Of a stretch of 50,786 nucleotides of DNA, positions 8,099 to 37,825 are shown in pieces; the stretch's first letter is position 1, and each line of letters starts with the position of its first letter. Below the pieces are notes generated by a model. It worked only from the letters and a program-made list of their open reading frames with translations, had not been told where the DNA came from and ran no database searches. The position numbers were made by a program, and so were the translations under genes. The stretch lies in the IMG/VR virus record IMGVR_UViG_3300030099_004693, positions 1 to 50,786 of that record, one strand, 5' to 3'. Source of the DNA: a virus. Its lineage: Duplodnaviria > Caudoviricetes.

Positions 8099-8652
8099 TA
8101 AACCATAGTATCTAAAAAAGCACTTTGATACCCAGGATTTACTATATCATCCATAAAAGATTCATCAGGCGTTTCATCTAAATAAAACTGCGATTGTTTT
8201 ATAAAATGCTCTTCTGTTCCTTTGCCAGCTTTAGTATTCCAATTTTGTTTCCAATAATTAGCTTGCCCTTCTAAATCTTCGGGTATTGCAGAAGGAATAT
8301 TTAATAATCCCATTCTTGTTAATGCAGCTGATATATATGGATTATGGTTTTCTTGAGATAAGTCTAAATTTAAAATATCAAAATCAGGTCTATTTAATTT
8401 ATCCTGCAAATACTGATTAGCAATTTGAACTCTTTTAGCTCCTTCAGGGCCCGTAGCTCTTTGAACAATATCTTTATATTTAATGGGGTCAATTTGCGAA
8501 GCTCCAAAAGAATATCCTCCCATTTTATCCATACCAAGATTGCTTTCTGTTGCAGCTACATTTTTCATAAACTGACCTACATCACTATATCCTGCATCAG
8601 AGTACAATTGATTAATCTCTTGTATTGCTTCTAATGTTTTTTCTTTAGACAT
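8098..8652 (-). CDS. Lysozyme-like/lytic transglycosylase-like protein (endolysin candidate)
   Basis: AATESNLG (catalytic-Glu-like ES), FGASQI (G..Q), ANYWKQNWNT..GKG. Confidence 0.55.
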   Translation of the reverse strand: MSKEKTLEAIQEINQLYSDAGYSDVGQFMKNVAATESNLGMDKMGGYSFGASQIDPIKYKDIVQRATGPEGAKRVQIANQYLQDKLNRPDFDILNLDLSQENHNPYISAALTRMGLLNIPSAIPEDLEGQANYWKQNWNTKAGKGTEEHFIKQSQFYLDETPDESFMDDIVNPGYQSAFLDTMV

Positions 8653-8969
8653 TACTTACTCATTGACCTAGCACGCTCTTTACCGCAGTTGCAGTTCCAT
8701 TTACGCAATGCTTTGTTTATTCTGCTGTTTGGGTCGTTAGCCGTCTTCGCTCCCGTTAGTCTACGCTTCATTCCACACATTCTAGCACAGAAAGAACTTC
8801 TTCTTTTAGCAGATTTACTGCCTTTCTTTAACTTACTTGGCTTTGTGGTAACAGCCATCTTTAGCTTAGAACCAGGGTTTGCGGCTCTATACGACGCAAT
8901 ACCCTTTCTGTTTAAGCCACCAGATTTACTCTTACCCGCTTTACGTTGCCATGCTGGTGTTTTTGCCAT
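8652..8969 (-). CDS. Small basic conserved phage protein (DUF6321-like)
   Basis: GGLNRKG...NPGSKLK...RRSSFCARM...DPNSRINKALRKWNC pattern recalled from marine phages. Confidence 0.7.
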   Translation of the reverse strand: MAKTPAWQRKAGKSKSGGLNRKGIASYRAANPGSKLKMAVTTKPSKLKKGSKSAKRRSSFCARMCGMKRRLTGAKTANDPNSRINKALRKWNCNCGKERARSMSK

Positions 8970-9281: not shown

Positions 9282-9578
9282 TTAATACACTTTAGAGGAT
9301 TTCTTAGTCACAGCGTCTCTATTACTTGCTTTTTTTAACATTTTTCTATCTACAGCTCCTTTTCCAGCCATAGCTCCCATATTAGCACCAGCTTTATACA
9401 TTGGACCTCGTGCTGCAGCTTTTTTTAGTCCACTTCTTGCTACTCCACTAGCGCCTATTCCTTTACCAGCAGCAAATCCACCTACTCTTCCTGCTGCTTT
9501 ACCTGCTTCTGCTACTTTTTTTGCAGCTGCTTTACCTTTTTTTGTATATGGAAACTTTTTCCCGCCTACATCTGGCAT
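9282..9578 (-). CDS. Small K/A/G-rich basic protein
   Basis: MPDVGGKKFPYTKKGKAAAKK N-terminus; AGGAGG RBS. Confidence 0.8.
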   Translation of the reverse strand: MPDVGGKKFPYTKKGKAAAKKVAEAGKAAGRVGGFAAGKGIGASGVARSGLKKAAARGPMYKAGANMGAMAGKGAVDRKMLKKASNRDAVTKKSSKVY

Positions 9579-12477: not shown

Positions 12478-12747
12478 ATGGCAAACACAAATGTAATAAC
12501 AATAGAAAGTAATATACCAATACCAGAATCAAGATGGTTAGGGAATTCAGATAAATATGGGTTTGTAAATAATTTAAATGTAAGTGATAGTTTTTACATA
12601 AATGGAAATACTCCAGATTATAAACCACAAAATGTTAAGGCTCATATTTACAAATTAAATGCTAGTACTGATAAAAAATATACAATTAGAACTATTGAAG
12701 GAACATCAGCAAATCCTGTCGCAATAAGAGTTTGGAGAACAGCTTAA
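12478..12747 (+). CDS. Small conserved phage protein (IExNIPIP...KY.F..L.V.DSF...RVWR type)
   Basis: Pattern recalled from a common small phage family; AAGGAG RBS. Confidence 0.65.
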   Translation: MANTNVITIESNIPIPESRWLGNSDKYGFVNNLNVSDSFYINGNTPDYKPQNVKAHIYKLNASTDKKYTIRTIEGTSANPVAIRVWRTA

Positions 12748-12791
12748 TTTAACAGATAATAAGATAACGATAAAATAAAGGAGCCTATATT

Positions 12792-13061
12792 ATGGCAAAC
12801 GCAACAAGTGCACCTAGCGGTGAAAGAACAGTAAGTGTAAGTGAAAATGGTAGCTGGTCTACTAAAACAATCGTAGCAAATACTATTGGCGAACTAAGAA
12901 TAGCGTTAGATATACCTAACGAAGCTACAGTTAACGTTCAAGACCAATTGTATACAGATAATTCATCTGCAATGCCAGTTAACGAGCTAAATGATGATGG
13001 TACAACACGACCATTATGTATTGGCTGGGTAGCTAACAATAAAACAGGAGGCGCAAAGTAA
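12792..13061 (+). CDS. Ubiquitin-like (beta-grasp) protein precursor ending GG-AK
   Basis: Strand-strand-helix (TIGELRIAL)-strand-strand pattern, C-terminal NKTGGAK; next to JAB and E1 genes. Confidence 0.7.
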   Translation: MANATSAPSGERTVSVSENGSWSTKTIVANTIGELRIALDIPNEATVNVQDQLYTDNSSAMPVNELNDDGTTRPLCIGWVANNKTGGAK

Positions 13062-13086
13062 TGTATCCTGATAAGTAAATAATAAT

Positions 13087-13178
13087 TAAGGGGGACAATA
13101 AGCCAAGTAGTTCTAGTGGATATAGGTGGTGTTCACCGAACACAGAAACTAGACATAGACATCGGTGAGTCCCCCTTA
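13087..13178 (+). promoter_or_regulatory. Structured intergenic element with possible pseudoknot
   Basis: TAAGGGGGAC/GTCCCCCTTA closing stem, TCACCGA/TCGGTGA, crossing TCTAGT/ACTAGA. Confidence 0.5.
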
Positions 13179-13195: not shown

Positions 13196-14818
13196 ATGAA
13201 TTTGTTATTAGATTTTAATTCAAGTCCAACAATTAATAAAAATATCGTAGAATGTAGTAAATCTCCTGTAGAATTTACAGAAACAGGAGCACGCATTAAG
13301 TTTATTAGACCACCACGATATGAGCCATCACACAATTCATTGTGGATAGATATTCTTAATATTGATACATTGTGGGATAATGTAGATGCAGAGCAGTTTG
13401 CAAATAACACAGGAATGCAAGACATAATAGCATTTAAAGAAGAGCTGGAAATAGTAAACACATATTTGTATGATGCTTTTGGAATAACAGATAAGATTGA
13501 TGTTACTAAATCATATGGTTGGAAGAAAGGTTGTTACGATATTGTTAAAGATGCAATTGCAAAAGCTCACAGATTTAACATGAGACCATCAGGTATGCCT
13601 AGTATATTCAACAGAATACAAGATAATAGGTGGATGTATGAACAGCTACAAAGACAAATGCTAGGTCTTGATGCTTATCGTAATAAAGCTAAATCAGCAG
13701 AAATAACACTTGATAGTAGTATCGAAAATATTATTGAAAGCCAACGAGCAGCTTATGATAATATCATAGAAAGTACAAATCAAGCTAATAATATGTCTGA
13801 TTATTACAAAGTATATAATTACATTGAACCATCAACTGATAGTGTTGATATTCAATTATATACAATTGTACATTGCAAATCAAAAGATATGACTATTATT
13901 AACAACAGAAACGAAGAGATATGTAAAATGAAAGTGCCTGAATGTTATCTTAAGTTTCATAGACCATTGTACAGAGCATTAAATGGTGGGAACAGGTATC
14001 CTTTACATTATACTGCAGCTGTTATGCATGGTAAACATCCATACATTAACGCAACACCGTATCGAAGGTTAAATCATTCGAGTATAGATAGATATGCATG
14101 GAGCACATTATGTCTATCTAGTTATACTGATGATATAGAGCGTGCGTTGAAAAAAAATGATTACATGTCTTTTGTTATGGGTATTATGAATTGGAATAAT
14201 ATTTATAATAAAGATGCAACTAATCCATATGCTGAAATCACACAAGTTATGACTTATGGTACATTTCCAGAAGTTAAAAACGAAGATGAACTGCATAGAA
14301 TAAGAACGGCTCTTAATATTAGTCTACACGAGTTCTTTCGCGCTAAATACTTTAAACACACAATGACAGAACTTGATAGTGTTCAAAGAGATTGGAACGA
14401 AAGAATAACTAGAAATTACTCTCCATATGCAAGATATATTGTTGAAGAATATGATAGTAAGAATTGTCCAACACGAAATGTTTGCACTGGATATCAAAAT
14501 CTTAAATCATATCTTGATTCAGATACGCAGTATATGGTAGAAGAAATGGTAGGTAATTTTCTTATTAATGACAATAGTAATGAGTTTGATGTAGGCTATG
14601 AGTTTCAAGAACTAGAATCAATACTAATGGCTATAAATCATTCTGTAAGAGCTGAAAACTTGTGGGACCAGTTACAGCAACTAAAGTACTCAGATGAAAC
14701 TGATTACTGGGGTGAAGCCCCGATAAAAACCGATAATAACCCTGATATTGCAGCGATGCAAGCTAAAATATCACAATGGGAAGAACAATTAGCAGCCTCA
14801 GGAGGTATAAATGAGTAG
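13196..14818 (+). CDS. Large protein with putative E2 (UBC-like) conjugating domain
   Basis: H281-PYIN...STL-C306-L then a helix and YN...NPY, echoing E2 HPNI...ICL...PN..SP; operon context. Confidence 0.6.
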   Translation: MNLLLDFNSSPTINKNIVECSKSPVEFTETGARIKFIRPPRYEPSHNSLWIDILNIDTLWDNVDAEQFANNTGMQDIIAFKEELEIVNTYLYDAFGITDKIDVTKSYGWKKGCYDIVKDAIAKAHRFNMRPSGMPSIFNRIQDNRWMYEQLQRQMLGLDAYRNKAKSAEITLDSSIENIIESQRAAYDNIIESTNQANNMSDYYKVYNYIEPSTDSVDIQLYTIVHCKSKDMTIINNRNEEICKMKVPECYLKFHRPLYRALNGGNRYPLHYTAAVMHGKHPYINATPYRRLNHSSIDRYAWSTLCLSSYTDDIERALKKNDYMSFVMGIMNWNNIYNKDATNPYAEITQVMTYGTFPEVKNEDELHRIRTALNISLHEFFRAKYFKHTMTELDSVQRDWNERITRNYSPYARYIVEEYDSKNCPTRNVCTGYQNLKSYLDSDTQYMVEEMVGNFLINDNSNEFDVGYEFQELESILMAINHSVRAENLWDQLQQLKYSDETDYWGEAPIKTDNNPDIAAMQAKISQWEEQLAASGGINE

Positions 14819-15779
14819 ACCTAACTTTATTATTAAAGAAAAAGCGTGGAACACTATGCAACAGTATGCAGGCATTGCATATGACAAGGATAAAAACGAG
14901 ATATCTGGATTGATACCATATAAACTAACAAAGCATCCTGTATCAAACGAGACTGTATATGAGTTATTTGACCCAGTTATCTTAAAACAAGAAAACTCAG
15001 GAACAACAACAGAGCTTGATGGTGAAGCGTTACGAGATTACCAAATTAAAGCTGGCATGAAATATGGAACAGACATCAGGTTTTGTTGGTGGCATTCACA
15101 TCATACAATGGGCGCATTCTGGTCAGGAACAGATGACAAAGAAATAAAAGCATGGAAGAATGATTCATGGTCACTTGCACTTGTTGTTAATCTGTTTGGA
15201 GAATACAAACTAAATGTATCTGTTTGGAAACCAATAGAGTTTTCTGAAGATGTGCCATTAGAAATTATAAGAGATATTCCTAAAGCAACAAAAACACAGC
15301 TTAAAGAATACGATGAATTATGTTCTAATAAAACAGAAGTCGTACATACTGGCTGGCAATCAAAAGGATATACTCCTCACAATCAAGTAACTATGTGGAA
15401 TAATCAAACTAAAGAAGATGCGCTTGACCCTAATGCGCACAAAAAGCTAAAATGGGTTCATGGAGAATCTATGGAACCTTATGCAGAGCTTATCGAAGCA
15501 TTAGATGAAGCAGTATCTGATATAATAGATGATTTCTGTCAAGGTACTATGGATTATAAAGAATATTCTAGCAAAATCAAAATGTTAAACAAAGACTTAA
15601 AGCAAAGAAATGCAAAAGTTAAAATTAATATACTGCCAAAAGGCAAAGTATTGGAAAAAGCAATGACTATGCAAGCTTGGGAACATTTAAAATATGATAA
15701 CGAAGCTGTAGAAAAATCATATGATGATGCTAGATTAACTAACTATCAAACAAACTATGGAGGTTATGGATGGGTATAA
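14811..15779 (+). CDS. JAB/JAMM (MPN+) metalloprotease
   Basis: E30...H95-S-H97-x7-S105-x2-D108, an exact JAMM motif. Confidence 0.9.
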   Translation: MSRPNFIIKEKAWNTMQQYAGIAYDKDKNEISGLIPYKLTKHPVSNETVYELFDPVILKQENSGTTTELDGEALRDYQIKAGMKYGTDIRFCWWHSHHTMGAFWSGTDDKEIKAWKNDSWSLALVVNLFGEYKLNVSVWKPIEFSEDVPLEIIRDIPKATKTQLKEYDELCSNKTEVVHTGWQSKGYTPHNQVTMWNNQTKEDALDPNAHKKLKWVHGESMEPYAELIEALDEAVSDIIDDFCQGTMDYKEYSSKIKMLNKDLKQRNAKVKINILPKGKVLEKAMTMQAWEHLKYDNEAVEKSYDDARLTNYQTNYGGYGWV

Positions 15780-16441
15780 ACATGAGAAGCGAAGGCTTAG
15801 TAAACACTTTGCATGAATATACTTTTCATATATTAGGTTGCGGAGCTATTGGTAGTTCTGCAGCTACTCAGTTACTAAGATGTGGTGCTAAAAACTTTGT
15901 ATTATACGATATGGATAAAGTAGCAACAGAAAACATCGGCGTATCTCAGTATATGGATGAGCATATTGGCATGTTAAAAACTGAAGCATTAGAAGAACAT
16001 CTGATGAGTATTAATTGTAGGAACGTAGAAATAATACAATCACCAGAATACTTTAACATGTTTCGATATCAAAATAATAATGACATTGTAATATTAGGTT
16101 TTGATAGTATGAAATCTAGAAAACATGCAGTTCAAGAAATATGTTCAAATAAACAAACTAAACCATTCTTGTTGATAGATGGTAGGATGGGCGGTGAACA
16201 TTACCAACAATATTTGTTTAAAGACTTGACACTAAATAAATATCTAAAAACATGGTATTCTGACGAAGATGGTGATGCAGAGCCATGTAATGTCAAAGCA
16301 ACAAGTTATTGCTCAAATATGGCAGGTAGTATGATTGTAAACGCTATTAGAAAGGTAGTTACAGATAGTCCTTACGAAACAATGTTGACTTTTAACTTCC
16401 CTACAATGACAATACAAAAAAATACTTGTTTCCCAGCCTGA
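15770..16441 (+). CDS. ThiF/MoeB/E1-like adenylyltransferase
   Basis: GCGAIGS, DMDKV..EN, G..K..AL, FDS...R, IDGRMG, candidate catalytic C173 (EPCN). Confidence 0.92.
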   Translation: MGINMRSEGLVNTLHEYTFHILGCGAIGSSAATQLLRCGAKNFVLYDMDKVATENIGVSQYMDEHIGMLKTEALEEHLMSINCRNVEIIQSPEYFNMFRYQNNNDIVILGFDSMKSRKHAVQEICSNKQTKPFLLIDGRMGGEHYQQYLFKDLTLNKYLKTWYSDEDGDAEPCNVKATSYCSNMAGSMIVNAIRKVVTDSPYETMLTFNFPTMTIQKNTCFPA

Positions 16442-22619: not shown

Positions 22620-22869
22620 CTCAGGGCAGAAAGAATACGCTCATGATGAAGATAATGTATTTGCTAACTTCGAAAGAGTAGCAGAATCCTGCAATATATC
22701 CAGAGAACAAGCTCTTTGGGTATATGCATCAAAACACTTTGATGGAATATCTGCTTATGTTAAAGGATATAAAAGTCAAAGAGAAGATGTACGTGGTAGA
22801 TTAACAGACCTTACAGTATACTTATGGTTGTTGTGGGGTATGATAGAAGAATCAGAAAGTAAGTCCTGA
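22549..22869 (+). CDS. All-alpha nucleotide-modification-associated/MazG-like-fold protein
   Basis: KEYA...VFANFERVA...KH...RL.DL..Y pattern. Confidence 0.45.
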   Translation: MMKHKEMKNLMEKKILPQITKTRDSGQKEYAHDEDNVFANFERVAESCNISREQALWVYASKHFDGISAYVKGYKSQREDVRGRLTDLTVYLWLLWGMIEESESKS

Positions 22870-25800
22870 CCCAGGTGTTGGGACTTTTCTTTCTTCACCT
22901 TCTCTTAATTCTTTGGACGCTCTACTTAATCCTATTAATGGTATGCCTGTCCATTTATCTACAAGTGACATTGGGTTTTCTATTAAATTGTTTTGAGCAA
23001 CAAAATCTCTAGATATTCTTCCAAATGGATACATAGTGTGTATGTAATAGTTAGCTACTCGTTCCCAATCATCTTCTAATACAGCTCTCATAGATGCCAT
23101 TGGCAGTCTTGCTATTGGTGGAGTAATTAGTTGTAATGGTGCAATTGGCTGTGGCCATTGCCCAAAAAATGCTCTTTTCTTATCTTTTTCATCACCAAAC
23201 AACCATTCACTAGTATCCTGCATCCAGTTCCATGGCGATGGCATTGCAGTATCAAATAATGAATATGCAAAAGCATTACCTAATGAAAATACAAATAGGT
23301 CTAATTGCATTATTCTTGCCACACGTTCTGCTTCTTTACCTTTAAAACCATATAATCTAGCTTGTCTTAATGCTTCTCTTCTAAAACGTATAGCATTCCA
23401 GCCCCAAAGCTGGAAACGTGTCATTACTTTACCTAATGCTGTTCTAGCAAACATAGGTCTAAATGGAGCAGAATATAAAAACTGAGTAGATTTAACTCCT
23501 TTCTTAGCTAAATCTATTAATATAGGGTGGTCAAACTCTCTAATAGCACCATTGAATTTTTTATACCAAAATAAATAATGTGCCATAAATGCATCTCTTC
23601 TTAATGCTCTTTCTGGTACAGACATAAACTTAGCTGCTAATTCTGTAACAGGTCTTGTGATACCCTTTTCTTTACCTAAATCTAAAACAGATTCACTAGA
23701 TAAATTAGGGTCACGTTTAAGTTTACGTGCAACAAGTTCAATAAACTCTTTATTACGAGATGATTGATATTCTGTTGCTAAACCATATTCCTCAAGTAAT
23801 TGCTCAGGCAATACGCCTTGTTTAATTACAAACGCTTCTCTAGCTTCTTTAGATGCAAACTTATCACTAAGTGCAGCCATATATTTATTGTTTCTAGCAT
23901 CCATCCAAGTCTTCATACCAACAGATTGTACAGTATGCATAGTACCACCAAAAATATTAGCAACAACAGACTTAGGATGTGCTAATAACGATGCTAACTC
24001 AAACTTAGCTTCTAGGTTACTCCAGTTACGTACATCATTTAAATCTAAACCTCTAAGTTCTTCAGGTAATTCTTTCTTAATTAATCCTAATTTGTCTCCT
24101 ATTTTATTAAGTCTATCTTTAACTCTATTATCAGCCCACCATCCATAAGGTGTACCTTTTATTTTCATGTTAGGATTTTCATAAACATACTCAGGGACAA
24201 CATCAGGATTGCCTATAGCGCCTTGCACATAAAGTTTTAAGAATGTAGACCACGATTCTTTAATGTTTTCTGGTACTTTTCTATCAAACATTGACTGTTC
24301 AAACTTAGATATAGTATCTCTTGCAAGTATTTGAGCCCATTGTTTGTAATATGTATTGTTTAAACTTTTACCATAGCCTGTGGGAACCTGTATGTCTAAT
24401 GAATATCCAGGTATATGACCTTCTCTACTAAGCTGAGAACCAGTTTTCTTTATATCTTGCAACCAACTTATACGTTCTTCTTTTTTTTGTTTACGTTTGC
24501 CTATATTTTCTAAACTTTTATTAAATCCTTCCCAAGTATTAATAGCTTCAAACATATAATCACCAGTTAATGCGTGATGTCTGTATGTTAATTTAGTTAT
24601 TAACTTATCTTGTTCTTTAGCATCTAAACTGCTTTTGCGTATATATTTTACATATTCTTTAAGTGCGTTAAGTGCGGTTTTTTTACTAAAATGATTATGT
24701 GGAAAATACATTTCTTCTGATATTCTACCAGTTCTAGATGGAAATGTTTCATACATTTTTTTCAATTCTTTTTTCTTTAGTTTTTTAGTATTAGTAGCTA
24801 TTTCATATTTCATTGACCTAGCTATAGTATTTATACCATCAATACCAAATTCTGTCGGTATTTTTTTGTTTTTAGCTACAGCTCTATTAAAATCGTTTAC
24901 AAGTTTTTCAAAGTTAATAATTGGATTTTGTTTAGTTTTAGGGTCGTAAAATCCTTTAACGTAGCCACTATTTTTAGGACCAGATGTAAATCCAGGAATA
25001 CCAAACTCTATAGCTTTTTGTAATGCATATAATGGTTGACCATCTGCAGTTGTTCCTATTACTTTTAAATTACCAGAAGAATCTTTAGGAACATTACCTT
25101 GTGCAATCTCTAATTCTTTTTTATAATATGCTGTTTCTTTATTGTTAATAATATCAACAATTTCAGAACCCTTTAACTTTTGCAGTTTTTTATCTATTTC
25201 AACAGTATAAACTTTATCTTTTAAATCAGTTTCGTATTTATGTTTTTTAGTAATTTCATTAAAAGCATCTGTATATGTCTTAGCGTGAAACATAGCAAGA
25301 GGTTTATCTTTTTTACTTACATCTGTTAAAATCTTTTCTGCCATAGGAAGTTCTCGTTTAACCATAGCTACTTCCCATAATTGTTTGCCTTCAGGTATAG
25401 CATCTAAAAACGTATATTCTTTTACTCGTTCTAAAGATAACTGTTCATTGGCTGCATCTGCTGCATCTAACACGCTTTTAATTCTATATTGAGTAATGTC
25501 TATGTACTGAGTAGGTAATATAGACTTACCAGTCTTCATACCTTCTGCTGTCATAAATATACCTTTCTTTTGCATCAGAACAATTTCATCTCGCATTAAT
25601 TCTTTATTAATAGTTTCAGGAAACTGTAAATATGTACGCTGTGATACTTTACTAATATCTTCACCTTTTAATCGTTGCCAAAAAGTACCAGTCTTAGTAT
25701 CTCTAAGCCAATTGCGAAGTACCATCCAGTCCTGTTTATTAAATATATTTATATCTTTGCCTACAACTTCACGTGCAATAAATCCAATGTTTTGTACTAC

Positions 25801-28800
25801 TTTATTGTTTTCTGTTTTTAAGTCCATTACAATGTCATCAATATAACCCTTAGTCTCAGCATCTAGTTTAGTTTTACCTTTAGCTTCTTTAACGCCTTCC
25901 CATCCAGTAGTAAATACTTCTGTTAGTTTAGCATCAGATTCCTCAGGCCACCCTTTTTCAATGCTTTCTTTTTTAGTAGGTTCTTCTAATAGTATAGTTC
26001 CTTCTCTTCGTATTTGTTCTGGTGCACGATGAGTAGATACTTCGTTGTATGTATTGTTTATTTCACCTAAAAACTTTCCAATAGAATTAGTTTCCATAGC
26101 TTCGCTGTTGTATCCCAACATAGATGATGACGTTCTTGCTGTATTTGTAAGCTCTGTATCATAGTCTTTTTGTTCCTTATTAGTTAAAGGTCTTTCTAGT
26201 TTAATTGCGTTTAGTTCTGCTAACTTTTCAAGATTACCACGATTCAATGAACCTAACATTAATGTATCAAACAATCTTTTTTCTATGTCAGTTCTATTAC
26301 GTTTCCATTTTCTTATCTCTGCATCAATAGCATTTTGGTCTTTAATCGATGAACCTTTAGACTTTCTTTGTCTACCAATATTTAGTTCAGTATCTAAACT
26401 ATTTCTATCATCTCTCATTAGATACGATTCTGCTTTTAATTTTTCTACTGTAGTATGCGCATCTTCTATCATTGCATTTACTTCAGCTTTTGTAATACCA
26501 GGAACTCTTTTCTTTACAACATCTATAATTTTTACAAGCTCTTGTACAGTCACCATTGTTTGTATATCTCTACCAGAAAAATCACCAGCTTGTTCTTTTA
26601 ATCGTTCTAATACAGCAATGCGTTCTTGTTCTGTGTAAAGTTTATTTTTTGCCTTTTTAAATGTAGCAAACTTAGTTCCTTTTATAACATCGTAAAACGT
26701 AGCTTTGTTTTTAGCAGCTGCAACTAATGCATCAGGGTTTAATAAATTGTATTTATACACTTTATTAATAATTGTAGGAGTAGGTGTTTTTAATGTTCTT
26801 CTTCCTAACATACCTTTTAAAGAACTATACTCAGCTACACTTTTGTTGTAGTTATTATATAAATCTGTTATTCTATCAAATTTTACTCTATTTAATGCGT
26901 GGTCAGAATAGTCTATATTATGTAACAGTCTAGCTATTTTAGGCGTCATAGTAGTAATATTCTTTGGGTCTTCAGCCATAAGTTCTGCTGTAAGATTCTT
27001 TCTGTCTTCCATAGTATATTGACGTTGATTTGTATAATCTTTGCCGTAGTATGCATTATTAGCTTTACTTAACATACCAATAACACCATTTTTATTAAAC
27101 TCTGAAACATTCAACTTAGCTAATGGCACTTTTGATTTAACAATAAAGTGAGCCTCTAATGCTTGTTTATACCAATTCTCATAGCCTTTAGGCTTACCAT
27201 AATCCATTGCATCTGATGAAAAACCAACCATAGCACGCATTAGTTTATTTGCGTAATCTATTTCTTGAGGTTTAGTTTTAGGGATAAGAGTTACTTTTAT
27301 ATCTTTACCAAAATGTTTAACAGTAAACTCGTCTTTACCTTTATTAAGTATCATTTGATATGCAGATGCCATAATGTTTTTAGGATTAACAGCAGCTCCA
27401 CCAAGAAGTCCTCTACCTTCTACAGCACCTTCTGATGCTTGATGTCGCATATTAGGCGCAAACATACCAGCCTGACTTTTAAATAACGCGTCTTCTCTTG
27501 GACTATATTCTTGTATAAGCTTTTTCTCAAATTCTTTAGCTTTGTTATCAGCTATTTTAAACCTACCATCTTTCTGTTTAACATAGAACTCTTGTTCTTG
27601 AGCTTCCATTACATCTTTATATTCTTTCTTTAAACCACCCTTACCACCAAAGTACATATACGCAGAATCAATATCAAGGTCAGCACCACCTAACGCTCTC
27701 ATCTTTAACCCATGCATTAGTATGCCATAGTCATTTCTTCCAGTAAACCCAGCAAACTGCAATATTTGTGTACCAGAGTTAGAATCTGCTGGAACTCTTA
27801 TAACTGCAGTCCTAAAAACCTCTTCTAGCCGTTTTTTAGCCGATTCTGGAGTACTTTTACTTAAGTACGTGCTATAGAGCTCTTCGAGTGTTTTCTTTCC
27901 ATATAGCTCTGTTTCAATAACTTTCTTTTTATGTTTGTCTCCAAGGAAAAATATTTTAGAATTTGTATTTAATTCTTTTAACCTAGGATTAACACCATCT
28001 AAATCTTTCTGTAATCCTTCATCATATGGTCTAATAATAGCTGCAGCAGAGTTTTTAACCTTTGGTTTAGTAACAGAGTTTACTATCCAACTAGACATCA
28101 TTTTATCTCTGTATTTGTTTATATCTGGATGCGTAAATATATTAGCTTCATTCTCTGGTTTACCACGTTTAATAGCGTCTTTACGTGCAGCTGCTATCAT
28201 TTTTTGTGCAACAGAATGGTAATACTCAACTTCCCTATTGTTTGCATCGTATTCTGCTTCTGTCATTACACCTTCGGCATACTCTTCTCTTATAGCAGAC
28301 TTTCTATTTAACAATAGATAGTTATAAAATGCCTTAGAAAACAATTGATTACCAGGTTGTTTCATAGCATCTGTTATACGTTCTAACCCAATAGCATCAA
28401 AATCTAGCTTATCTAGTTCTTTAGCTAATTGTTTATCTGATGCTGTAGGTAGTTTTTCTAAGTACGCATCTAATGCTTCATTAGCTTTTGCATCACCTTT
28501 AATACGTGGCTCCATAAAATCTTTAAATATACCATCAACTGCTTCTTTGACAGTAAAGCCATCTTTAGATGCTTTTTGAAATGCCATAGCTTCTACTAAA
28601 TTAGTAAGCATTTGTTTTTTAATACTCTGCGGTGCAATAAACTTTTTACTTTGCTTTATGCCTAAATCTTGTTTAATATGCGTAGGGTCTAAATCATATA
28701 CTTCATAAAACTCTCTTGTACCTTTTTGTTTAACAGCAGATGCCATAATATTCATATGTATACCAGCATCTTTCATTTCTGCTGATAACTTAGGTCCTGC

Positions 28801-31272
28801 TGGATGTATTGCATATTTACCAAGCAATGCACCGTGCTCAGCATTAGGCGATACTATTAATGATTTATTAGTACCAGATTCAGGCGTACCTTTTTCTAAA
28901 TTTAAAGCTCGTACAACATCATCTCTAGCTATAATAGCACCATCAAGATGTTCTTCTGTTTTAGTAGACTCTATGTCTGAAAACTTAGCAGCTTCTTTCA
29001 TTTTATCTTGTAATCGTTTAGGTAAGTTTTGACCAAAATCAGGTATAATATTATATCTAAAATTACCTTCTACTAAATCAGCTATGTGCCCAGGGCTTTG
29101 TTTGTTAGTAAAAAACTCTTTTTCAGCAGAATATGCATCTGTCATTAATAATGGCAGTCTTTTATTAAATGCTATTGCATTCTTTAAAAACCCATCGCCT
29201 TGCATTTTTTTAATATTAGCAGGTGTAAACTCTAAACCATTCATTTCTAACTGCCATAATACGTTAGATGCAAACCCTCTATCAAACTCAGCTTGAGTTA
29301 AATTGTATTTTTTCTTAAAATCATTTCTAAGCGCACGAATATCTGATGCTTTAAATTGAGATATAATAGTTCGCATGTTACCAGCTGTATTGCTTTTAGG
29401 ATGATGTTTCATAAAGTATAGTCTGTCTGCAGTACCTTTACCACCAAAATAACTATAACCTTTTTTATTCATTTCTTTTATAGTGCCGCCTACTAAATTA
29501 TAGTAATCTTTTGCACCACCATACTCTGCATACTCCATCTGTTTAAGTTTTTGTAATGATATTTCACGTTGACCATTTTCACCTTCTACAACTATATGGT
29601 CAAGAAACGTATGTGCACGTTCATCTTTGCCAGTTAACTTTTTCCATATTTGGTCAGCTATTTTTAATGGCTCTGTTAATATTTTTTTATTACCTGCTAA
29701 ATTCTTAGCATTCTGCTCTGTTAAAAAGTATATATTAGTACCATCTGTCGTAAGTACTTCTGTAACCTTATCGTTTTTATATCGAGTAATAAACTGTCTT
29801 ATATCACCTTCTGTACGCAATACTCTTTCTGGGTCTTTATTAGAATTTTTAATTTGATATTTATAGTCTTCTTGTAGCATTTCTTGTATTTTTCTAAATG
29901 CATCAGATGACTCGTTAGTCTTGGGACCTCTAACGTATTTGTCTAGTATATTAGACATTTTAGTTGTTATCTCAGCTGTCTGGTCTAATCTTTCTTGAGA
30001 TGTAATTTCTTTACCTTTAAAAAAATCAGGCATATCAAACCTAACTATGTTTTGAGCTTTATTGCCTATCTTTGGGTCTATAGTAGGTTCTACGCCTACA
30101 TTACTTTCTTCTGTGCTACCAGTCTCAAATACTTCTTTTTCTTTCTCTACTATCTTAGTAGGCTCAGTTTTAACCTCTACTTTAGGTACACCCTCTTGCT
30201 CTAATAATTTTTCTGTTTCTATATTTAATTGTTTTTGTAATTCATTGGCAGCTGTTCGTTGCACCTGTTCTTCTACAGTTCCTCTAGTTTGATTAAACTG
30301 AGTAATTACTTCTTTTTGTACTTCAGGCGGTAATTTACTAAACTCAGGATGTCTAGCAGGGTCATATATTTCAACCAATGCTTCGTTACCAGGTTTTTGT
30401 GCATCTTTTTCATATTTTTGTGAAAACTTTTGTGCTTTAGCTACAGTCCATGGTCGTTCTTGTCCTCCAAACCAAGCACCCATAACATATTCATAAACTT
30501 GCTCAGGTGTAGTTGCACCTCTCATAGTAGCAGGTAATCCCATAAACAATGAACCTGCTAATGTTTTAGCTACTTTATTACCAGCTTCACTTCCAGTATT
30601 AACAAAGTTACCTATACTTCTAAATACACCACCAGCTTGCGCGCCACCTACAAATGCAGCCATCATTTCATCGACACCACCTTGCCAAGCTGATGCTGCT
30701 GATGCTGCTCCTAAATGAAATGCACCTTCAGCTATATGTCTAGCTCTTTCACCTAATATAAAATTACTAGCAGTTCTTACTGCATCATTTTTAGCCAGTC
30801 TACCTTGATTTAAAAATGGTTTAACAATTTTTTTTGTTTGTTTAGTTGCAAAATTAGCCACAGCCATAGGAACAGACTTGTTGTTTAATGAACGAGCAGT
30901 ATTAGCTGCTGTCATAAGAGATGTAGTTTTAAGTCCTAACTTAGCAGATACTTTAGCAGCAGCACCTAATGGCGCTCCTATAATACCAGGTGCAAACCCA
31001 GCTAAATGACCTAGGTTTTTAAAAATTGCTTCGTATTCGTTGTCTGGAGTGTCGCCTACTTTTAATGTAGTAAAACCTTCTATAAACCCCGAGCCAAGGT
31101 CTGTTAATGCATCAGATATACTAAATTCACCGCTATAAAAAGGTATGTTGTGATAATCAGCGTGTTGCTGTATTGTGTCTTTGAGGTTTGCATAAGCGTC
31201 TGGATTCTTTTTATAAGAATCAATTAATGTTCTTACAGTACGCTCATCCAATCGTGGTTGGAACTCAGCCAT
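22852..31272 (-). CDS. Giant ejection protein with double-psi-beta-barrel (crAss-like) virion RNA polymerase
   Basis: RVP...FAGF...GGA-D1198-L-D-I-D1202 catalytic-like loop; upstream LLGKY and S845-AVK; Gly/Ala-rich N-terminus; last gene of the ejection cluster. Confidence 0.75.
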   Translation of the reverse strand: MAEFQPRLDERTVRTLIDSYKKNPDAYANLKDTIQQHADYHNIPFYSGEFSISDALTDLGSGFIEGFTTLKVGDTPDNEYEAIFKNLGHLAGFAPGIIGAPLGAAAKVSAKLGLKTTSLMTAANTARSLNNKSVPMAVANFATKQTKKIVKPFLNQGRLAKNDAVRTASNFILGERARHIAEGAFHLGAASAASAWQGGVDEMMAAFVGGAQAGGVFRSIGNFVNTGSEAGNKVAKTLAGSLFMGLPATMRGATTPEQVYEYVMGAWFGGQERPWTVAKAQKFSQKYEKDAQKPGNEALVEIYDPARHPEFSKLPPEVQKEVITQFNQTRGTVEEQVQRTAANELQKQLNIETEKLLEQEGVPKVEVKTEPTKIVEKEKEVFETGSTEESNVGVEPTIDPKIGNKAQNIVRFDMPDFFKGKEITSQERLDQTAEITTKMSNILDKYVRGPKTNESSDAFRKIQEMLQEDYKYQIKNSNKDPERVLRTEGDIRQFITRYKNDKVTEVLTTDGTNIYFLTEQNAKNLAGNKKILTEPLKIADQIWKKLTGKDERAHTFLDHIVVEGENGQREISLQKLKQMEYAEYGGAKDYYNLVGGTIKEMNKKGYSYFGGKGTADRLYFMKHHPKSNTAGNMRTIISQFKASDIRALRNDFKKKYNLTQAEFDRGFASNVLWQLEMNGLEFTPANIKKMQGDGFLKNAIAFNKRLPLLMTDAYSAEKEFFTNKQSPGHIADLVEGNFRYNIIPDFGQNLPKRLQDKMKEAAKFSDIESTKTEEHLDGAIIARDDVVRALNLEKGTPESGTNKSLIVSPNAEHGALLGKYAIHPAGPKLSAEMKDAGIHMNIMASAVKQKGTREFYEVYDLDPTHIKQDLGIKQSKKFIAPQSIKKQMLTNLVEAMAFQKASKDGFTVKEAVDGIFKDFMEPRIKGDAKANEALDAYLEKLPTASDKQLAKELDKLDFDAIGLERITDAMKQPGNQLFSKAFYNYLLLNRKSAIREEYAEGVMTEAEYDANNREVEYYHSVAQKMIAAARKDAIKRGKPENEANIFTHPDINKYRDKMMSSWIVNSVTKPKVKNSAAAIIRPYDEGLQKDLDGVNPRLKELNTNSKIFFLGDKHKKKVIETELYGKKTLEELYSTYLSKSTPESAKKRLEEVFRTAVIRVPADSNSGTQILQFAGFTGRNDYGILMHGLKMRALGGADLDIDSAYMYFGGKGGLKKEYKDVMEAQEQEFYVKQKDGRFKIADNKAKEFEKKLIQEYSPREDALFKSQAGMFAPNMRHQASEGAVEGRGLLGGAAVNPKNIMASAYQMILNKGKDEFTVKHFGKDIKVTLIPKTKPQEIDYANKLMRAMVGFSSDAMDYGKPKGYENWYKQALEAHFIVKSKVPLAKLNVSEFNKNGVIGMLSKANNAYYGKDYTNQRQYTMEDRKNLTAELMAEDPKNITTMTPKIARLLHNIDYSDHALNRVKFDRITDLYNNYNKSVAEYSSLKGMLGRRTLKTPTPTIINKVYKYNLLNPDALVAAAKNKATFYDVIKGTKFATFKKAKNKLYTEQERIAVLERLKEQAGDFSGRDIQTMVTVQELVKIIDVVKKRVPGITKAEVNAMIEDAHTTVEKLKAESYLMRDDRNSLDTELNIGRQRKSKGSSIKDQNAIDAEIRKWKRNRTDIEKRLFDTLMLGSLNRGNLEKLAELNAIKLERPLTNKEQKDYDTELTNTARTSSSMLGYNSEAMETNSIGKFLGEINNTYNEVSTHRAPEQIRREGTILLEEPTKKESIEKGWPEESDAKLTEVFTTGWEGVKEAKGKTKLDAETKGYIDDIVMDLKTENNKVVQNIGFIAREVVGKDINIFNKQDWMVLRNWLRDTKTGTFWQRLKGEDISKVSQRTYLQFPETINKELMRDEIVLMQKKGIFMTAEGMKTGKSILPTQYIDITQYRIKSVLDAADAANEQLSLERVKEYTFLDAIPEGKQLWEVAMVKRELPMAEKILTDVSKKDKPLAMFHAKTYTDAFNEITKKHKYETDLKDKVYTVEIDKKLQKLKGSEIVDIINNKETAYYKKELEIAQGNVPKDSSGNLKVIGTTADGQPLYALQKAIEFGIPGFTSGPKNSGYVKGFYDPKTKQNPIINFEKLVNDFNRAVAKNKKIPTEFGIDGINTIARSMKYEIATNTKKLKKKELKKMYETFPSRTGRISEEMYFPHNHFSKKTALNALKEYVKYIRKSSLDAKEQDKLITKLTYRHHALTGDYMFEAINTWEGFNKSLENIGKRKQKKEERISWLQDIKKTGSQLSREGHIPGYSLDIQVPTGYGKSLNNTYYKQWAQILARDTISKFEQSMFDRKVPENIKESWSTFLKLYVQGAIGNPDVVPEYVYENPNMKIKGTPYGWWADNRVKDRLNKIGDKLGLIKKELPEELRGLDLNDVRNWSNLEAKFELASLLAHPKSVVANIFGGTMHTVQSVGMKTWMDARNNKYMAALSDKFASKEAREAFVIKQGVLPEQLLEEYGLATEYQSSRNKEFIELVARKLKRDPNLSSESVLDLGKEKGITRPVTELAAKFMSVPERALRRDAFMAHYLFWYKKFNGAIREFDHPILIDLAKKGVKSTQFLYSAPFRPMFARTALGKVMTRFQLWGWNAIRFRREALRQARLYGFKGKEAERVARIMQLDLFVFSLGNAFAYSLFDTAMPSPWNWMQDTSEWLFGDEKDKKRAFFGQWPQPIAPLQLITPPIARLPMASMRAVLEDDWERVANYYIHTMYPFGRISRDFVAQNNLIENPMSLVDKWTGIPLIGLSRASKELREGEERKVPTPGSGLTF

Positions 31273-35114: not shown

Positions 35115-37825
35115 TAAAAATTTAAAGTTGCAGCTGCATAGGCTATTTTACTTTCTGCGTCCCAAAATATACTTATTATATCTGTTTTATTTGCTGTTGT
35201 AGTTAATGTTGGATTTGAACCCCCTGGAAATTTAACATCAGTAGTAGATAAACCGTTGTGACTCATTGCTTTGTATGCAGTAATAACCCCACTTCCACTT
35301 GAATCTTGTTCTAATGCTACAGTAAAGTTTCCTGAAAATTCTGGAAATATAAACCCAAGAATTGCAACTGTTTGCCCACCAGTTAATTCTAATCTAGCTT
35401 TTTGACATTCTCTAAAATCAATGTCAGTATTATTGCCAGTATTAGCAGTATACACAACATCACCATAAACAGGCTGATATATATTATCAGAACCATGTTT
35501 AAATGCTATACATCCATCGATTCCAACAATGTTTCCACTAACGCCATTTTCATCTATTTGAATAACAGTATCGCCACCTACTACAAAATCAAGCGTGTCA
35601 GCTGCACTTTCAGTTATATATGTATCTCCTACACCATCAAAATATAATTTATTTAAAGCTTGTATAGCTACTGAATCACTAGCTCCACCACCACCTTCTG
35701 TAACCTCTAATATGGTTTGACCCCCAACAACTACATCTAATTTATCTGCAGATACTTCATGTATATATGTATCATTACCATTATCAAAAAATACTTTACC
35801 AGTAGCTATTGTTGAAATATTACTTGTAGCATTAATAATTCCTGTAACATCTAATCCAGCATCATCAATTCTCATTTTTGTTGCTTCATCTACTGAAAAT
35901 GTAAATGCACCTTTATCCCCAGTACTGCTCGCTGTTTTACTTATAAATTCAACAACATCTATTCCTTTGGCACCTGCATTGTAATTAGCAACAATTTGTA
36001 GGCATTCAGTATCAGAAGAGCCTATTTGCCATACTGGGTTACCATCATTAACATCTCTTATAAATTTATTGGCTTGACTGCTTATTACTCTTTTATTATC
36101 ATTGTCAAAAACAATTTCAAAATCATCACTATTATTTTTAAGCTCTATAGATGTATCAATAGATAATGTCCCTGTAAAAGCGGGGCCATCAAACATAGTT
36201 GCCTTAGATTCATTGGTAACATTTCCTAATCCTACGTCATTAGCAGTAGCTGCAGTTAATATTTCACTTTGTAACGTAGCAGCAGACTTGTTATCTACAA
36301 GATTTAATGTTAAATCAGATTTAGTTTGGTCTGCATCTCTACCTACCAAGTCTCCACTTGAATCAAATTGAGCAAAATCTCCATTAGCTATTGTTCCTGA
36401 TTTATCTAATTTAGCAGTTACAGTCGTTTCTAAATTAGATATATTTGGAATTTGTACAGTTCCTGTAAATACAGGGTCAGCTTTTGTAGCTCTTGAATTT
36501 ATATTATTAGTTATATCAGCAGCAAAAGAAGCATTATCTCCTAATGCGGCTGCAATAGCATTAAGTGTATTTAAATCACTTGGAGCTCCATCTATAAGTG
36601 CATCTATTTTTGTTTGAGCTAAAGCATTTACTTCAGCGTCAAAATTTGTTATTTTGCCCTTAGGTAAATCTACAATTTTATCATTTGCAATTGCATCTCC
36701 ACCCCAAGTACCTGAAGTTATACTCCCTACTACTTGAATGCCTAAATTTTCTACACCAGTTTTATCTAATTGTGTGTCTGTAAAAACTGCAGATGCTGGA
36801 ACTTTTGTCCCTATATTTAACACCCATTCTCCTGCAGTAATAGCATCAGAATCATCTGCTTCTGCAATATATATCTTATTACTATCATTAGTGTCCATCC
36901 ACAAATCACCTTTTTTTACAGGAGGTGTAGCAGATGCACCATTTGGTATTGCGTCTTGTTTGTAAAAATTTGGCTTATAACCTAAGTTAGTAGTTACAGT
37001 TGTTGAAAAATTAGCATCATCACCAAGTGCAGCAGCAAGCTCATTAAGCGTATCTAAAGCACCTGGAGCAGAATCGATTAGGTTGTTAACCCCAGCAGTT
37101 ACTTTTCCGTCTACTTCACTGTCAAAATCAGATATTTTAGTATGGTCTATAGTATCTAAAACTGCTAAAGCTCCTAGGCCACTAACATCTCCAGCTGCTA
37201 AATCTGTTCCATTGATTTTAAATTTACTTCCAGACGATAAATCAACATCTCCATCGACATTTATTTTACCAGTACCATGAGCATTAATTGCAATATTACC
37301 ATTATCCCCATCTGTAATAGTAATGCTACCTGTATTTGTACTACCTGTATCTAAAATTAAATCTTGGTCACCTTTAGATGTAATTTTTCCTGCGGAGTCA
37401 CCTTTGCCTATAACTATATTAGAGTCAATTGCTAAATTACCATCGTTATTAATAATGTCAATATTTTGACCTTTTTTATTAACAATAGGGACTGCAGCAT
37501 TACTATCATATTTAACAGATTCCCCAGCAATAGGTTTTTTACTCCAACCTTTAGTTCCTTCCCCCGTATTATATCCATTAGAATTAACAGCAGGATGAAA
37601 GTTTCCATTTACATTGACAAGCCATTGTTTACCGTCATATATAATATCAGTAACAATACCATCATCAGTTGTTACTACTTGAGTATCTCCTGCTCGTGGA
37701 GGTCTCTTAGATGGTTTACCATCTGTTTCAGGCATTAAACCGTCTATTTTATCGTAGATATCTCGTAAAGCATTATCTACTATAGGGTCATTAACTTTCT
37801 TTCGTGTAAGGCGTGTTCTAGCCAT
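35114..37825 (-). CDS. Tail fibre protein
   Basis: Two LID.AP..L.TLN..AAALGD...F repeats; two DTYI.E..AD.LD.VVGG repeats; C-terminal FPGG..PTLTTTA..TDII. Confidence 0.85.
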   Translation of the reverse strand: MARTRLTRKKVNDPIVDNALRDIYDKIDGLMPETDGKPSKRPPRAGDTQVVTTDDGIVTDIIYDGKQWLVNVNGNFHPAVNSNGYNTGEGTKGWSKKPIAGESVKYDSNAAVPIVNKKGQNIDIINNDGNLAIDSNIVIGKGDSAGKITSKGDQDLILDTGSTNTGSITITDGDNGNIAINAHGTGKINVDGDVDLSSGSKFKINGTDLAAGDVSGLGALAVLDTIDHTKISDFDSEVDGKVTAGVNNLIDSAPGALDTLNELAAALGDDANFSTTVTTNLGYKPNFYKQDAIPNGASATPPVKKGDLWMDTNDSNKIYIAEADDSDAITAGEWVLNIGTKVPASAVFTDTQLDKTGVENLGIQVVGSITSGTWGGDAIANDKIVDLPKGKITNFDAEVNALAQTKIDALIDGAPSDLNTLNAIAAALGDNASFAADITNNINSRATKADPVFTGTVQIPNISNLETTVTAKLDKSGTIANGDFAQFDSSGDLVGRDADQTKSDLTLNLVDNKSAATLQSEILTAATANDVGLGNVTNESKATMFDGPAFTGTLSIDTSIELKNNSDDFEIVFDNDNKRVISSQANKFIRDVNDGNPVWQIGSSDTECLQIVANYNAGAKGIDVVEFISKTASSTGDKGAFTFSVDEATKMRIDDAGLDVTGIINATSNISTIATGKVFFDNGNDTYIHEVSADKLDVVVGGQTILEVTEGGGGASDSVAIQALNKLYFDGVGDTYITESAADTLDFVVGGDTVIQIDENGVSGNIVGIDGCIAFKHGSDNIYQPVYGDVVYTANTGNNTDIDFRECQKARLELTGGQTVAILGFIFPEFSGNFTVALEQDSSGSGVITAYKAMSHNGLSTTDVKFPGGSNPTLTTTANKTDIISIFWDAESKIAYAAATLNF

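Follow-up and report, generated by a model that had tools for sequence, protein, structure and literature searches.

A candidate ubiquitin-like conjugation cassette with a capped diglycine tag in an uncultured marine phage lineage

The DNA analyzed here is the IMG/VR virus record IMGVR_UViG_3300030099_004693, assigned to the Caudoviricetes, whose whole stretch of 50,786 bases (completeness estimate 99%) is referred to below as the window. The element under study is an open reading frame (ORF) of 89 amino acids (aa) with an ATG start, whose product reads ...LCIGWVANNKTGG-AK-stop and is predicted to be a ubiquitin-like protein (Ubl), also called the tag. It is followed on the same strand by genes for a 540-aa protein, a JAMM/JAB metallopeptidase and a ThiF-type E1 (activating) enzyme (Table 1), which makes a small system of 89 + 540 + 322 + 223 aa. 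A spacer of 134 nucleotides (nt) separates the Ubl gene from the 540-aa gene; the 540-aa and JAB genes overlap by 8 nt and the JAB and E1 genes by 10 nt. On the 3' side of the E1 gene a Sak4-like AAA_24 ATPase comes first, then a 203-aa protein and then a primase-helicase, and the cassette is placed ahead of these replication genes in an uncultured marine phage lineage.

Table 1. Features of the cassette, in window coordinates (E, expectation value; AF2, AlphaFold2)
Feature	Position	Strand	Details
Shine-Dalgarno sequence AAGGAG	12778..12783	+	8 nt 5' of the Ubl ATG; from sequence
Ubl precursor gene, 89 aa, ending NNKTGG-AK	12792..13061	+	ORF list; 415 homologs at E ≤ 1e-3
Codons of Gly86-Gly87, predicted mature C-terminus	13047..13052	+	invariant 29/29; synonymous codon variation
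Ala88-Lys89 cap, predicted to be removed	13053..13058	+	tails vary or are absent in homologs
Structured RNA-like spacer between the Ubl and enzyme genes	13088..13177	+	fold z-score; 9 loci
540-aa protein gene	13196..14818	+	His281 at 14036-14038; Cys306 at 14111-14113
Predicted domains of the 540-aa protein: N-terminal helical hairpin; UBC/E2-like core, ~180-357; C-terminal helical domain			AF2 model
JAMM/JAB (MPN+) metallopeptidase gene, 322 aa	14811..15779	+	Glu30 at 14898-14900; H95-x-H97...S105-x-x-D108 at 15093-15134
ThiF-type E1 gene, 223 aa	15770..16441	+	GCGAIGS at 15836-15856; Cys173 at 16286-16288; Cys181 at 16310-16312

The tag precursor and its diglycine

A first-pass annotation of the locus had described a diglycine followed by Ala-Lys at the end of the Ubl, and had proposed conservation of the diglycine with variable tails in homologs as a check. 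The ORF lies exactly where that description put it and ends in the two dipeptides as described, and the homologs follow the expected pattern. The first search retrieved 19 homologs with 70–100% identity, which represent the window's own clade. Of these, 18 end in NNKTGG followed by AK, IK, TK, A, AKQ, KIA, AVILS, TMKPTK, TMKTDK or SVEHKVYVYIV and carry 1–14 residues past the diglycine; the remaining one (P0019) diverges before this point and appears frameshifted. Further tails found among the homologs are Q and KKQ. Distant members came from a profile search of 1.84 billion representatives (14 at E ≤ 0.001) and further family members from 22 viral contigs fetched with the Ubl profile. Three proteins with multi-stretch matches were dropped from the alignments (P0039, P0042 and P0048; 792–1286 aa), P0039 and P0042 being repeat proteins, as was P0046, a 54-aa fragment without a C-terminus; P0043, which matches in its C-terminal half only, was included in alignment A3 and left out of A4. 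The diglycine is invariant in all 19 rows of A3, along with N82 and K84. In A4, whose 29 rows share 31–81% identity with the window's protein, M1, P42, N82, K84, G86 and G87 are invariant throughout; six rows stop at the diglycine and the others continue for 1–20 residues. A search with A4 returned 415 proteins at E ≤ 1e-3. Among the best 120 of these, 119 carry the motif N-x-K-x-GG (the exception is again P0019), 63 stop exactly at the diglycine and 56 have tails of 1–19 residues with no shared tail sequence; none of the 120 has a precomputed Pfam domain.

The two Gly codons also spell AGGAGG (13046–13051), a caveat already raised in the first-pass annotation. Across 23 distinct nucleotide versions, the first Gly codon is GGA in 15, GGC in four, GGT in two and GGG in two, and the second is GGC in 11, GGT in eight, GGA in three and GGG in one; AGGAGG is intact in 11 versions and GGAGG is lost in eight. 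Because the codons vary synonymously, selection acts on the protein rather than on an AGGAGG ribosome site, and a Shine-Dalgarno role is ruled out as the explanation of the conserved diglycine. These comparisons show selection on the diglycine and none on the tail.

A mini-ORF of five codons (MYPDK; 13061–13078, plus strand) takes its start from the TAATG at the end of the Ubl gene, 9 nt past AGGAGG. It is present only in close relatives, two loci (L031 and L033) have a different one of four codons and most loci have none, and it is probably of no consequence.

The structured part of the spacer consists of a closing stem, AAGGGGGAC / GUCCCCCUU, around variable hairpins. Its fold has a z-score of -3.48, and none of 200 shuffled sequences was equally stable. 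Its two ends, ...ACAAYAACUGGUCCU and AGGCAAAGGAAUAUGUGAGUCCCC, are conserved in nine loci, with inserts between them and a total length of 71–190 nt; the closing stem is 95.1% paired across these loci and one of its pairs is GC in four, UA in four and GU in one. The spacer has no match in Rfam and no T-run, and no terminator-like site was found on the plus strand. It may govern the balance between tag and enzymes, or mark a site of processing. Metatranscriptomic contigs from two runs of one study match the region at ≥99% (12628–12791, 12843–13091, 13286–13434 and 13923–14088), the second of them spanning most of the Ubl gene and stopping at the foot of the spacer stem. They give a hint of expression, with the limits that RNA libraries may hold DNA, that contigs cannot show transcript ends and that uncovered parts carry no meaning.

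The first-pass annotation had further read the Ubl as a beta-grasp fold with an acidic loop insertion, NELNDDGT. The insertion holds up: five short forms in A4 (L039, L040 and P0049–P0051; 67–76 aa) lack about 13 residues around this segment, which implies an insertion into a smaller core. The beta-grasp fold itself is suggested by several hints. ThiS (PF02597) was matched below threshold in seven of 40 short-form members (best P0051, E 0.0097, 16.9 bits against a cut-off of 22.5); the window's own Ubl was unmatched, and none of the members tested reached the cut-off for family membership. DUF348, a ubiquitin-like family, was matched below threshold in three of the 40. ESM-Atlas neighbors of a short form were viral clusters, two of them with 12–25% of members labeled ThiS (scores 0.93–0.94), which is taken as a lead only. 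The ThiS model had no match in the virus record, nor in the records of the crAss-like phage and Flavobacterium phage FpV4 discussed below. In our reading, the short forms follow a strand-strand-helix-strand...strand pattern ending DGxYVAY..NNK[TV]GG, a pattern and an ending that we take to parallel the termini of ThiS and MoaD. The confident folding of the Ubl in the complex described below, and the genes around it, favor the same reading.

Enzymes and gene order of the cassette

The JAB, which the first-pass annotation had placed adjacent to the Ubl, is in fact separated from it by the structured spacer and the 540-aa gene. Its residues E30 and H95, singled out in that annotation, belong to an intact motif (E30, H95-S-H97-HTMGAFW-S105-GT-D108) that is invariant in 13 of 13 relatives, down to 38% identity. 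Judged by this motif the JAB looks active; its match to Prok-JAB (PF14464; E 8.7e-4, 19.6 bits) lies under the cut-off of 25. A Gly- and aromatic-rich tail at its C-terminus (15756–15776), of the type YGGYGWV, YGGYGHGWY or FGYGGWCD, occurs in 13 of 13 relatives.

The complex of JAB residues 1–170 (13 alignment rows), Zn and the Ubl (29 rows) was predicted alongside three controls. It scored 0.76, compared with 0.00 for the best control, and the runs shared at least 84% of their contacts. The Ubl is modeled in this complex with a predicted local distance difference test (pLDDT) score of at least 82, its topology not being part of the output. Of 157 solved complexes 116 attain that mark, as do two of 215 mismatched pairs, rates that apply only roughly because custom alignments and a Zn ligand were used; since complexes of the JAMM-ubiquitin type have already been solved, the pass may also reflect likeness to them. 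Confident contacts join Ubl residues 15, 17–24, 46–51 and 74–80 to JAB residues 71–92 and 114–121, beside the HxH strand. Binding of the Ubl by the JAB is thus supported at the level of a structural model.

The E1 matches PF00899 (E 2.1e-20, 73.3 bits, cut-off 28.1), and GCGAIGS, D47-x-D49, K70, D112 and the two cysteines, Cys173 and Cys181, are unchanged in all 11 sequences aligned. Among solved structures its best relative is UBA5 (1.9e-6), with TcdA, Uba4 and MccB also found (range 1.9e-6 to 8e-4). The NCBIfam ThiF model PRK08644 is matched at E 2.7e-22, with 79.5 bits against a cut-off of 159.

The 540-aa protein has no family match in Pfam, PHROGs, PADLOC or NCBIfam. Its AF2 model (pLDDT 76.7) consists of a long helical hairpin, a core of a beta-meander plus helices and a helical C-terminal domain. 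When the core was realigned to E2 (conjugating enzyme) catalytic domains, Z-scores of 4.3–5.4 were obtained with a root mean square deviation of 3.7–4.5 Å over 117–142 of about 150 residues (model residues 177–357). All 17 members, down to 17% identity, share His281 within HPY[IL]N and Cys306 within LCLS. A VIA-wide search with the whole model was dominated by the hairpin (73–174), and only two rows fell on the core (181–338), one for a Knl1 chain and one for a chain in a UFM1-ligase/RQC ribosome complex (Z 5.9 and 5.4). Both are presumably RWD-type, i.e. UBC-like, domains. The full architecture recurs in six unnamed viral proteins of BFVD (E 5e-19 to 3e-11). We read the 540-aa protein as a probable E2-like enzyme.

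The C-terminus of the 540-aa protein (14795–14815) is in many relatives a Gly, or a GG with three more residues behind it: nine of 19 sequences in alignment A2 end in (S/T)GG(I/V/L)(N/H)E, one in GG and six in NG or RG, and six of 17 relatives in A7 end in Gly. In CBASS (anti-phage systems that signal through cyclic oligonucleotides), the C-termini of the CD-NTases are activated and trimmed. By analogy, the Gly-ending E2-like protein may itself be a substrate.

Among the 16 loci fetched with the Ubl profile, 13 keep the order Ubl, 540-aa protein, JAB, E1, with the same replication genes behind the cassette, and the other three end at a contig edge; the four-gene order is also found in loci fetched with the 540-aa protein. 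Across nine complete loci, identity to the window's proteins is 19–43% for the 540-aa protein, 26–79% for the tag, 39–69% for the JAB, 41–60% for the 203-aa protein, 61–87% for the E1 and 66–95% for the neighboring ATPase. By these ranges the tag and the 540-aa protein diverge fastest of the six, which fits an arms race or host-specific targeting. In two loci (L019, 1383–2243; L030, ~1700–2620) one more gene stands between those of the tag and the E2-like protein. It belongs to the spore-photoproduct-lyase family of radical-SAM proteins (TIGR03886, E 1.1e-88, under the cut-off; Pfam SPL, E 3.3e-21) and is probably an ultraviolet-repair moron unrelated to the cassette.

Interpretation and competing explanations

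These results lead us to read the cassette, with a probability of roughly 0.6, as a phage-borne ubiquitin-like conjugation system in which the JAB trims a tag that is first made as a precursor. The 89-aa gene would encode the tag, translated as a precursor ending NNKTGG-Ala-Lys. The JAB, encoded two genes downstream, would bind the body of the tag and cut after Gly87, releasing Ala-Lys (199.13 Da). The freed carboxylate of Gly87 would be adenylated by the 223-aa E1, and the tag would then pass via Cys173 or Cys181 of the E1 to, probably, Cys306 of the 540-aa protein, in which large flanking domains that evolve fast would select the target. The tag's destination would be lysines on proteins of the host, of rival phages or of the phage itself, early in infection because the cassette heads the replication module, and it would be removed again by the same JAB. 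Since the invariant Lys, K84, stands three residues before the mature end, trypsin would leave a Thr-Gly-Gly remnant on tagged lysines.

A precedent for the double role of the JAB exists in the bacterial BilABCD system. Excerpts of Chambers et al. (PMC10557695) describe the JAB, BilC, as cutting the Ubl, BilA, after a conserved Gly and also as deconjugating it, and describe up to nine extra residues past this Gly in type II BilA homologs.

Several results weigh against this interpretation. Its weakest link is the ubiquitin-likeness of the 89-aa protein. An AF2 model of the Ubl alone, built from a shallow alignment of 19 close homologs (69–98% identity), has a pLDDT of 48.8 and no helix; no family was matched at threshold in Pfam, PHROGs, PADLOC or NCBIfam; and profiles A1, A3 and A8 found only chance-level matches among solved structures, the best being a phosphoserine aminotransferase at E 0.047. 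For the 540-aa protein, the Z-scores of the E2 alignments are all below 8, a range common by chance according to the tool, the loop that bears Cys306 (294–307) has a pLDDT below 50, a Pfam E2 family is matched in none of 17 members, and Foldseek of the model against the PDB gave no match at E ≤ 0.001, with E2 enzymes recurring among the weak rows. In the complex, the tail of the Ubl (81–89) and the catalytic residues of the JAB lie outside the confident contacts. In addition, the 63 family members that stop at the diglycine need no trimming, and four of 13 complete cassettes (L034, L036, L039 and L040) keep a JAB beside a Ubl that ends at GG.

The retention of the JAB by tail-less relatives implies that priming is neither its sole nor its universal role, and it is likelier that the conserved job is deconjugation, with priming added where a tail exists. 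The capped and conserved diglycine of the first-pass annotation is therefore confirmed, and its proposal that the JAB primes the Ubl and may also deconjugate it is partly supported: predicted binding and the BilC/BilA precedent speak for it, and priming as the only function does not stand.

The same observations bear on an explanation that we regard as improbable, in which the Ubl system is genuine and the JAB is no maturase. The tails would then be neutral read-on, trimmed by the host or tolerated, and the JAB would act as an isopeptidase only, recycling the phage's own conjugates or, as a counter-defense, stripping those of host defenses of the Bil or CBASS Cap2 type. The tail-less half of the family and the cassettes that combine a GG-ending Ubl with a JAB are what it would lead one to expect, as are tails free in sequence and length and an interface without a confidently placed tail in the active site. 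However, tails are the rule in the window's clade, where the one protein without a regular tail is the frameshifted one, and the JAB is predicted to bind the Ubl specifically. According to the portions of PMC10557695 that treat these steps, E1 chemistry requires a free Gly carboxylate, and both tasks fall to the cognate JAB in BilABCD.

A sulfur-transfer function is also unlikely. In this case the 89-aa protein would be a carrier of the ThiS/MoaD type, adenylated by the E1 and thiocarboxylated for a phage-directed thiolation whose substrate would be a cofactor, tRNA or DNA; the JAB would process the carrier to its mature form or hydrolyze its adducts, and the 540-aa protein would not be an E2. 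JABs have such a role with sulfur carriers in the QbsE/QbsD and CysO/Mec+ systems. The E1 is nearest to ThiF and MoeB models and counts TcdA, Uba4 and MccB among its solved relatives, ThiS is the only family hint for the tag, and the E2 assignment is weak; JABs are also found with ThiS/MoaD-like proteins in sulfur-assimilation neighborhoods, as described in excerpts of Iyer et al. 2006 (PMC1779556). Nevertheless, the cassette contains no rhodanese, cysteine desulfurase or sulfur-accepting enzyme, and the best ThiF score of the E1 reaches about half of the family cut-off in bits. The 540-aa partner is always there, its UBC-like core carrying an invariant Cys and an invariant His, and both it and the tag evolve far faster than the E1, which is unexpected for a housekeeping-style relay. 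The radical-SAM gene of the two relatives belongs to a DNA-repair family and is not a sulfur-insertion enzyme.

It is very unlikely that the 89-aa protein is no Ubl and that its GG has a different meaning, the protein being either a small one from the phage that folds in another way or the precursor of a peptide with a double-glycine leader, with the E1 and JAB nearby by coincidence or for other chemistry such as MccB-like peptide adenylation: the absence of a confident fold and of any family at threshold, a low-confidence AF2 model that looks like a beta-sandwich (its best match in a VIA-wide fold search, at Z 4.1, is an uninformative one to domains of pilins and adhesins) and MccB among the weak solved relatives of the E1 (E 7.6e-4) would agree with it, but the conserved part is a body of 67–89 aa linked to E1 and JAB in all complete loci, the deeper alignment gave, within the complex, a confidently folded protein that docks on the JAB via strands, the short forms show the one-helix strand pattern that we compare, in our own reading, to ThiS and MoaD, and the 63 proteins with nothing past the diglycine have no core peptide to release, which rules out a double-glycine leader or a ribosomally synthesized and post-translationally modified peptide.

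If the conjugation reading is extended to its boldest form, a marine lytic phage lineage would run a complete offensive Ubl pathway consisting of a capped tag, a JAB acting as maturase and deconjugase, a minimal E1 and a giant E2 whose quickly evolving domains would also recognize targets and so join E2 and E3 in one chain, with early tagging of host defense or proteolysis proteins or of competitor virions. We offer this version tentatively and would not bet on it. If true, an offensive phage pathway would mirror the bacterial Bil defense, and viruses of prokaryotes would have a 'ubiquitination' system of their own. Bacterial Ubl tagging has so far been characterized mainly as a weapon of the host against phages (Bil and CBASS Cap2/Cap3). 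The same logic (tag with a capped Gly-Gly, JAB, E1, E2-like enzyme) is apparently a conserved core feature of this phage lineage, in which the tag family (at least 415 members) and the E2-like family are named by no library. Among the listed hits of literature searches, which included papers on Bil, Bub and CBASS and comparative-genomic papers of 2006–2010, none describes such a phage cassette, supplements aside.

Related systems and the carrier phage

Judged by its genes, the cassette resembles the Bil and PRTRC systems in its working and is a member of either by no model. BilABCD encodes the BilA Ubl, the BilB E2, the BilC JAB and the BilD E1, as set out in excerpts of PMC10557695 and of Hor et al. 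(bioRxiv 10.1101/2023.09.04.556158). It shares with the phage cassette the order tag, E2-like protein, JAB, E1 in one operon, and a conserved C-terminal Gly with a few extra residues in many members. However, no sequence relationship between the two is detectable, the phage E1 is minimal at 223 aa, the E2-like protein has 540 aa with large extra domains, and the cassette lies in a phage replication module rather than in a bacterial defense island. In PADLOC the tag, the 540-aa protein and the JAB were unmatched and the E1 matched only CBASS Cap2 'E1-E2' models among the 25 matches listed of 31; searches of the PDB found no Bil chain among the solved relatives of the cassette proteins.

PRTRC (ParB-related, ThiF-related; TIGR03735–03742) is reportedly operon class 6d of Iyer et al. 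2006. Like the cassette, it unites a Ubl, an E2-like protein, a JAB and a ThiF-type E1 on mobile elements beside replication or partition genes, and it is not known to have been probed by experiment; unlike it, the phage cassette has no ParB. The E1 scored 26 bits against PRTRC_ThiF (cut-off 144.75) and four of four JABs scored 12–17 bits against PRTRC_A (cut-off 101.8), and no PRTRC model was matched by any of 15 tags or six E2-like proteins.

Archaeal sampylation (SAMP1-3, UbaA and HvJAMM1) combines a small tag ending in GG, there of beta-grasp fold, with a ThiF/MoeB-type E1, but it has no E2, and SAMPs are sulfur carriers as well. Its JAMM desampylase can also process C-terminal extensions, as reported in excerpts of PMC4443979. 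One relative's JAB reached the desampylase model only at E 0.01 (15.7 bits, where the cut-off is 130).

A JAB-E1 pair in a replication module was found in crAss-like and Flavobacterium psychrophilum phages, where it is deposited as a 'metalloprotease domain' and a 'thiamine biosynthesis protein ThiF'. The E1s share 28–32% identity with that of the window over at least 80% of the length in 66 of 75 matching phage records, and the gene directly upstream of them matches the JAB profile in the uncultured crAss-like phage cr85_1 (E 4.9e-5; locus L041, 954–4669) and in Flavobacterium phage FpV4 (E 2.6e-8; locus L042, 610–4621). The profiles of the tag and of the 540-aa protein had no match in these two records, and our literature searches found no paper that pairs 'crAss-like' with 'ThiF'. 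Two genes upstream of the pair, cr85_1 and FpV4 encode a protein of 218 or 289 aa with a C-terminal Gly (...GLIG, ...KMFG) and a strand-strand-helix-like N-terminus. Kinship of the first cassette genes of these phages to the tag family is not supported (hhalign probabilities of 0.2% and 1.9%).

Phage-encoded Ubls with a C-terminal Gly and a JAB are also represented by the tail assembly protein I of phages Lambda and T1, whose Gly is conserved and whose release by the JAB of protein K is predicted in excerpts of Iyer et al. 2006 (PMC1779556). Protein I, in contrast to the tag, is fused to another domain and belongs to a tail module without E1 or E2, whereas the cassette lies in the early/replication region. 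ThiF/MoeB genes are common in archaeal viruses according to excerpts of PMC8276007.

The carrier has genes for a portal, large terminase, major head, capsid, tail and tail-fiber proteins, of which the portal, terminase, head and tail-fiber genes lie on the minus strand. Neither blastn with the region nor tblastn with the Ubl or the 540-aa protein revealed a cultured relative among 50,697 phage records, a single 46-nt blastn match being noise, and the primase-helicase shares at most 29% identity with those of Bacillus and Thermus phages. The DNA of the window was found in marine metagenome runs from several studies. Two giant ORFs on the minus strand amid tail-like genes (22852–31272, 2806 aa; 37825–43866, 2013 aa) occupy 28% of the genome; PHROGs gave no match for the first and a single weak one (E 1.1e-6) for the second. 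Two small, very basic proteins rich in Lys, Ala and Gly (8652–8969, 105 aa, and 9282–9578, 98 aa; both minus strand) adjoin the terminase and a 184-aa protein, and are possibly DNA-binding or ejected internal proteins.

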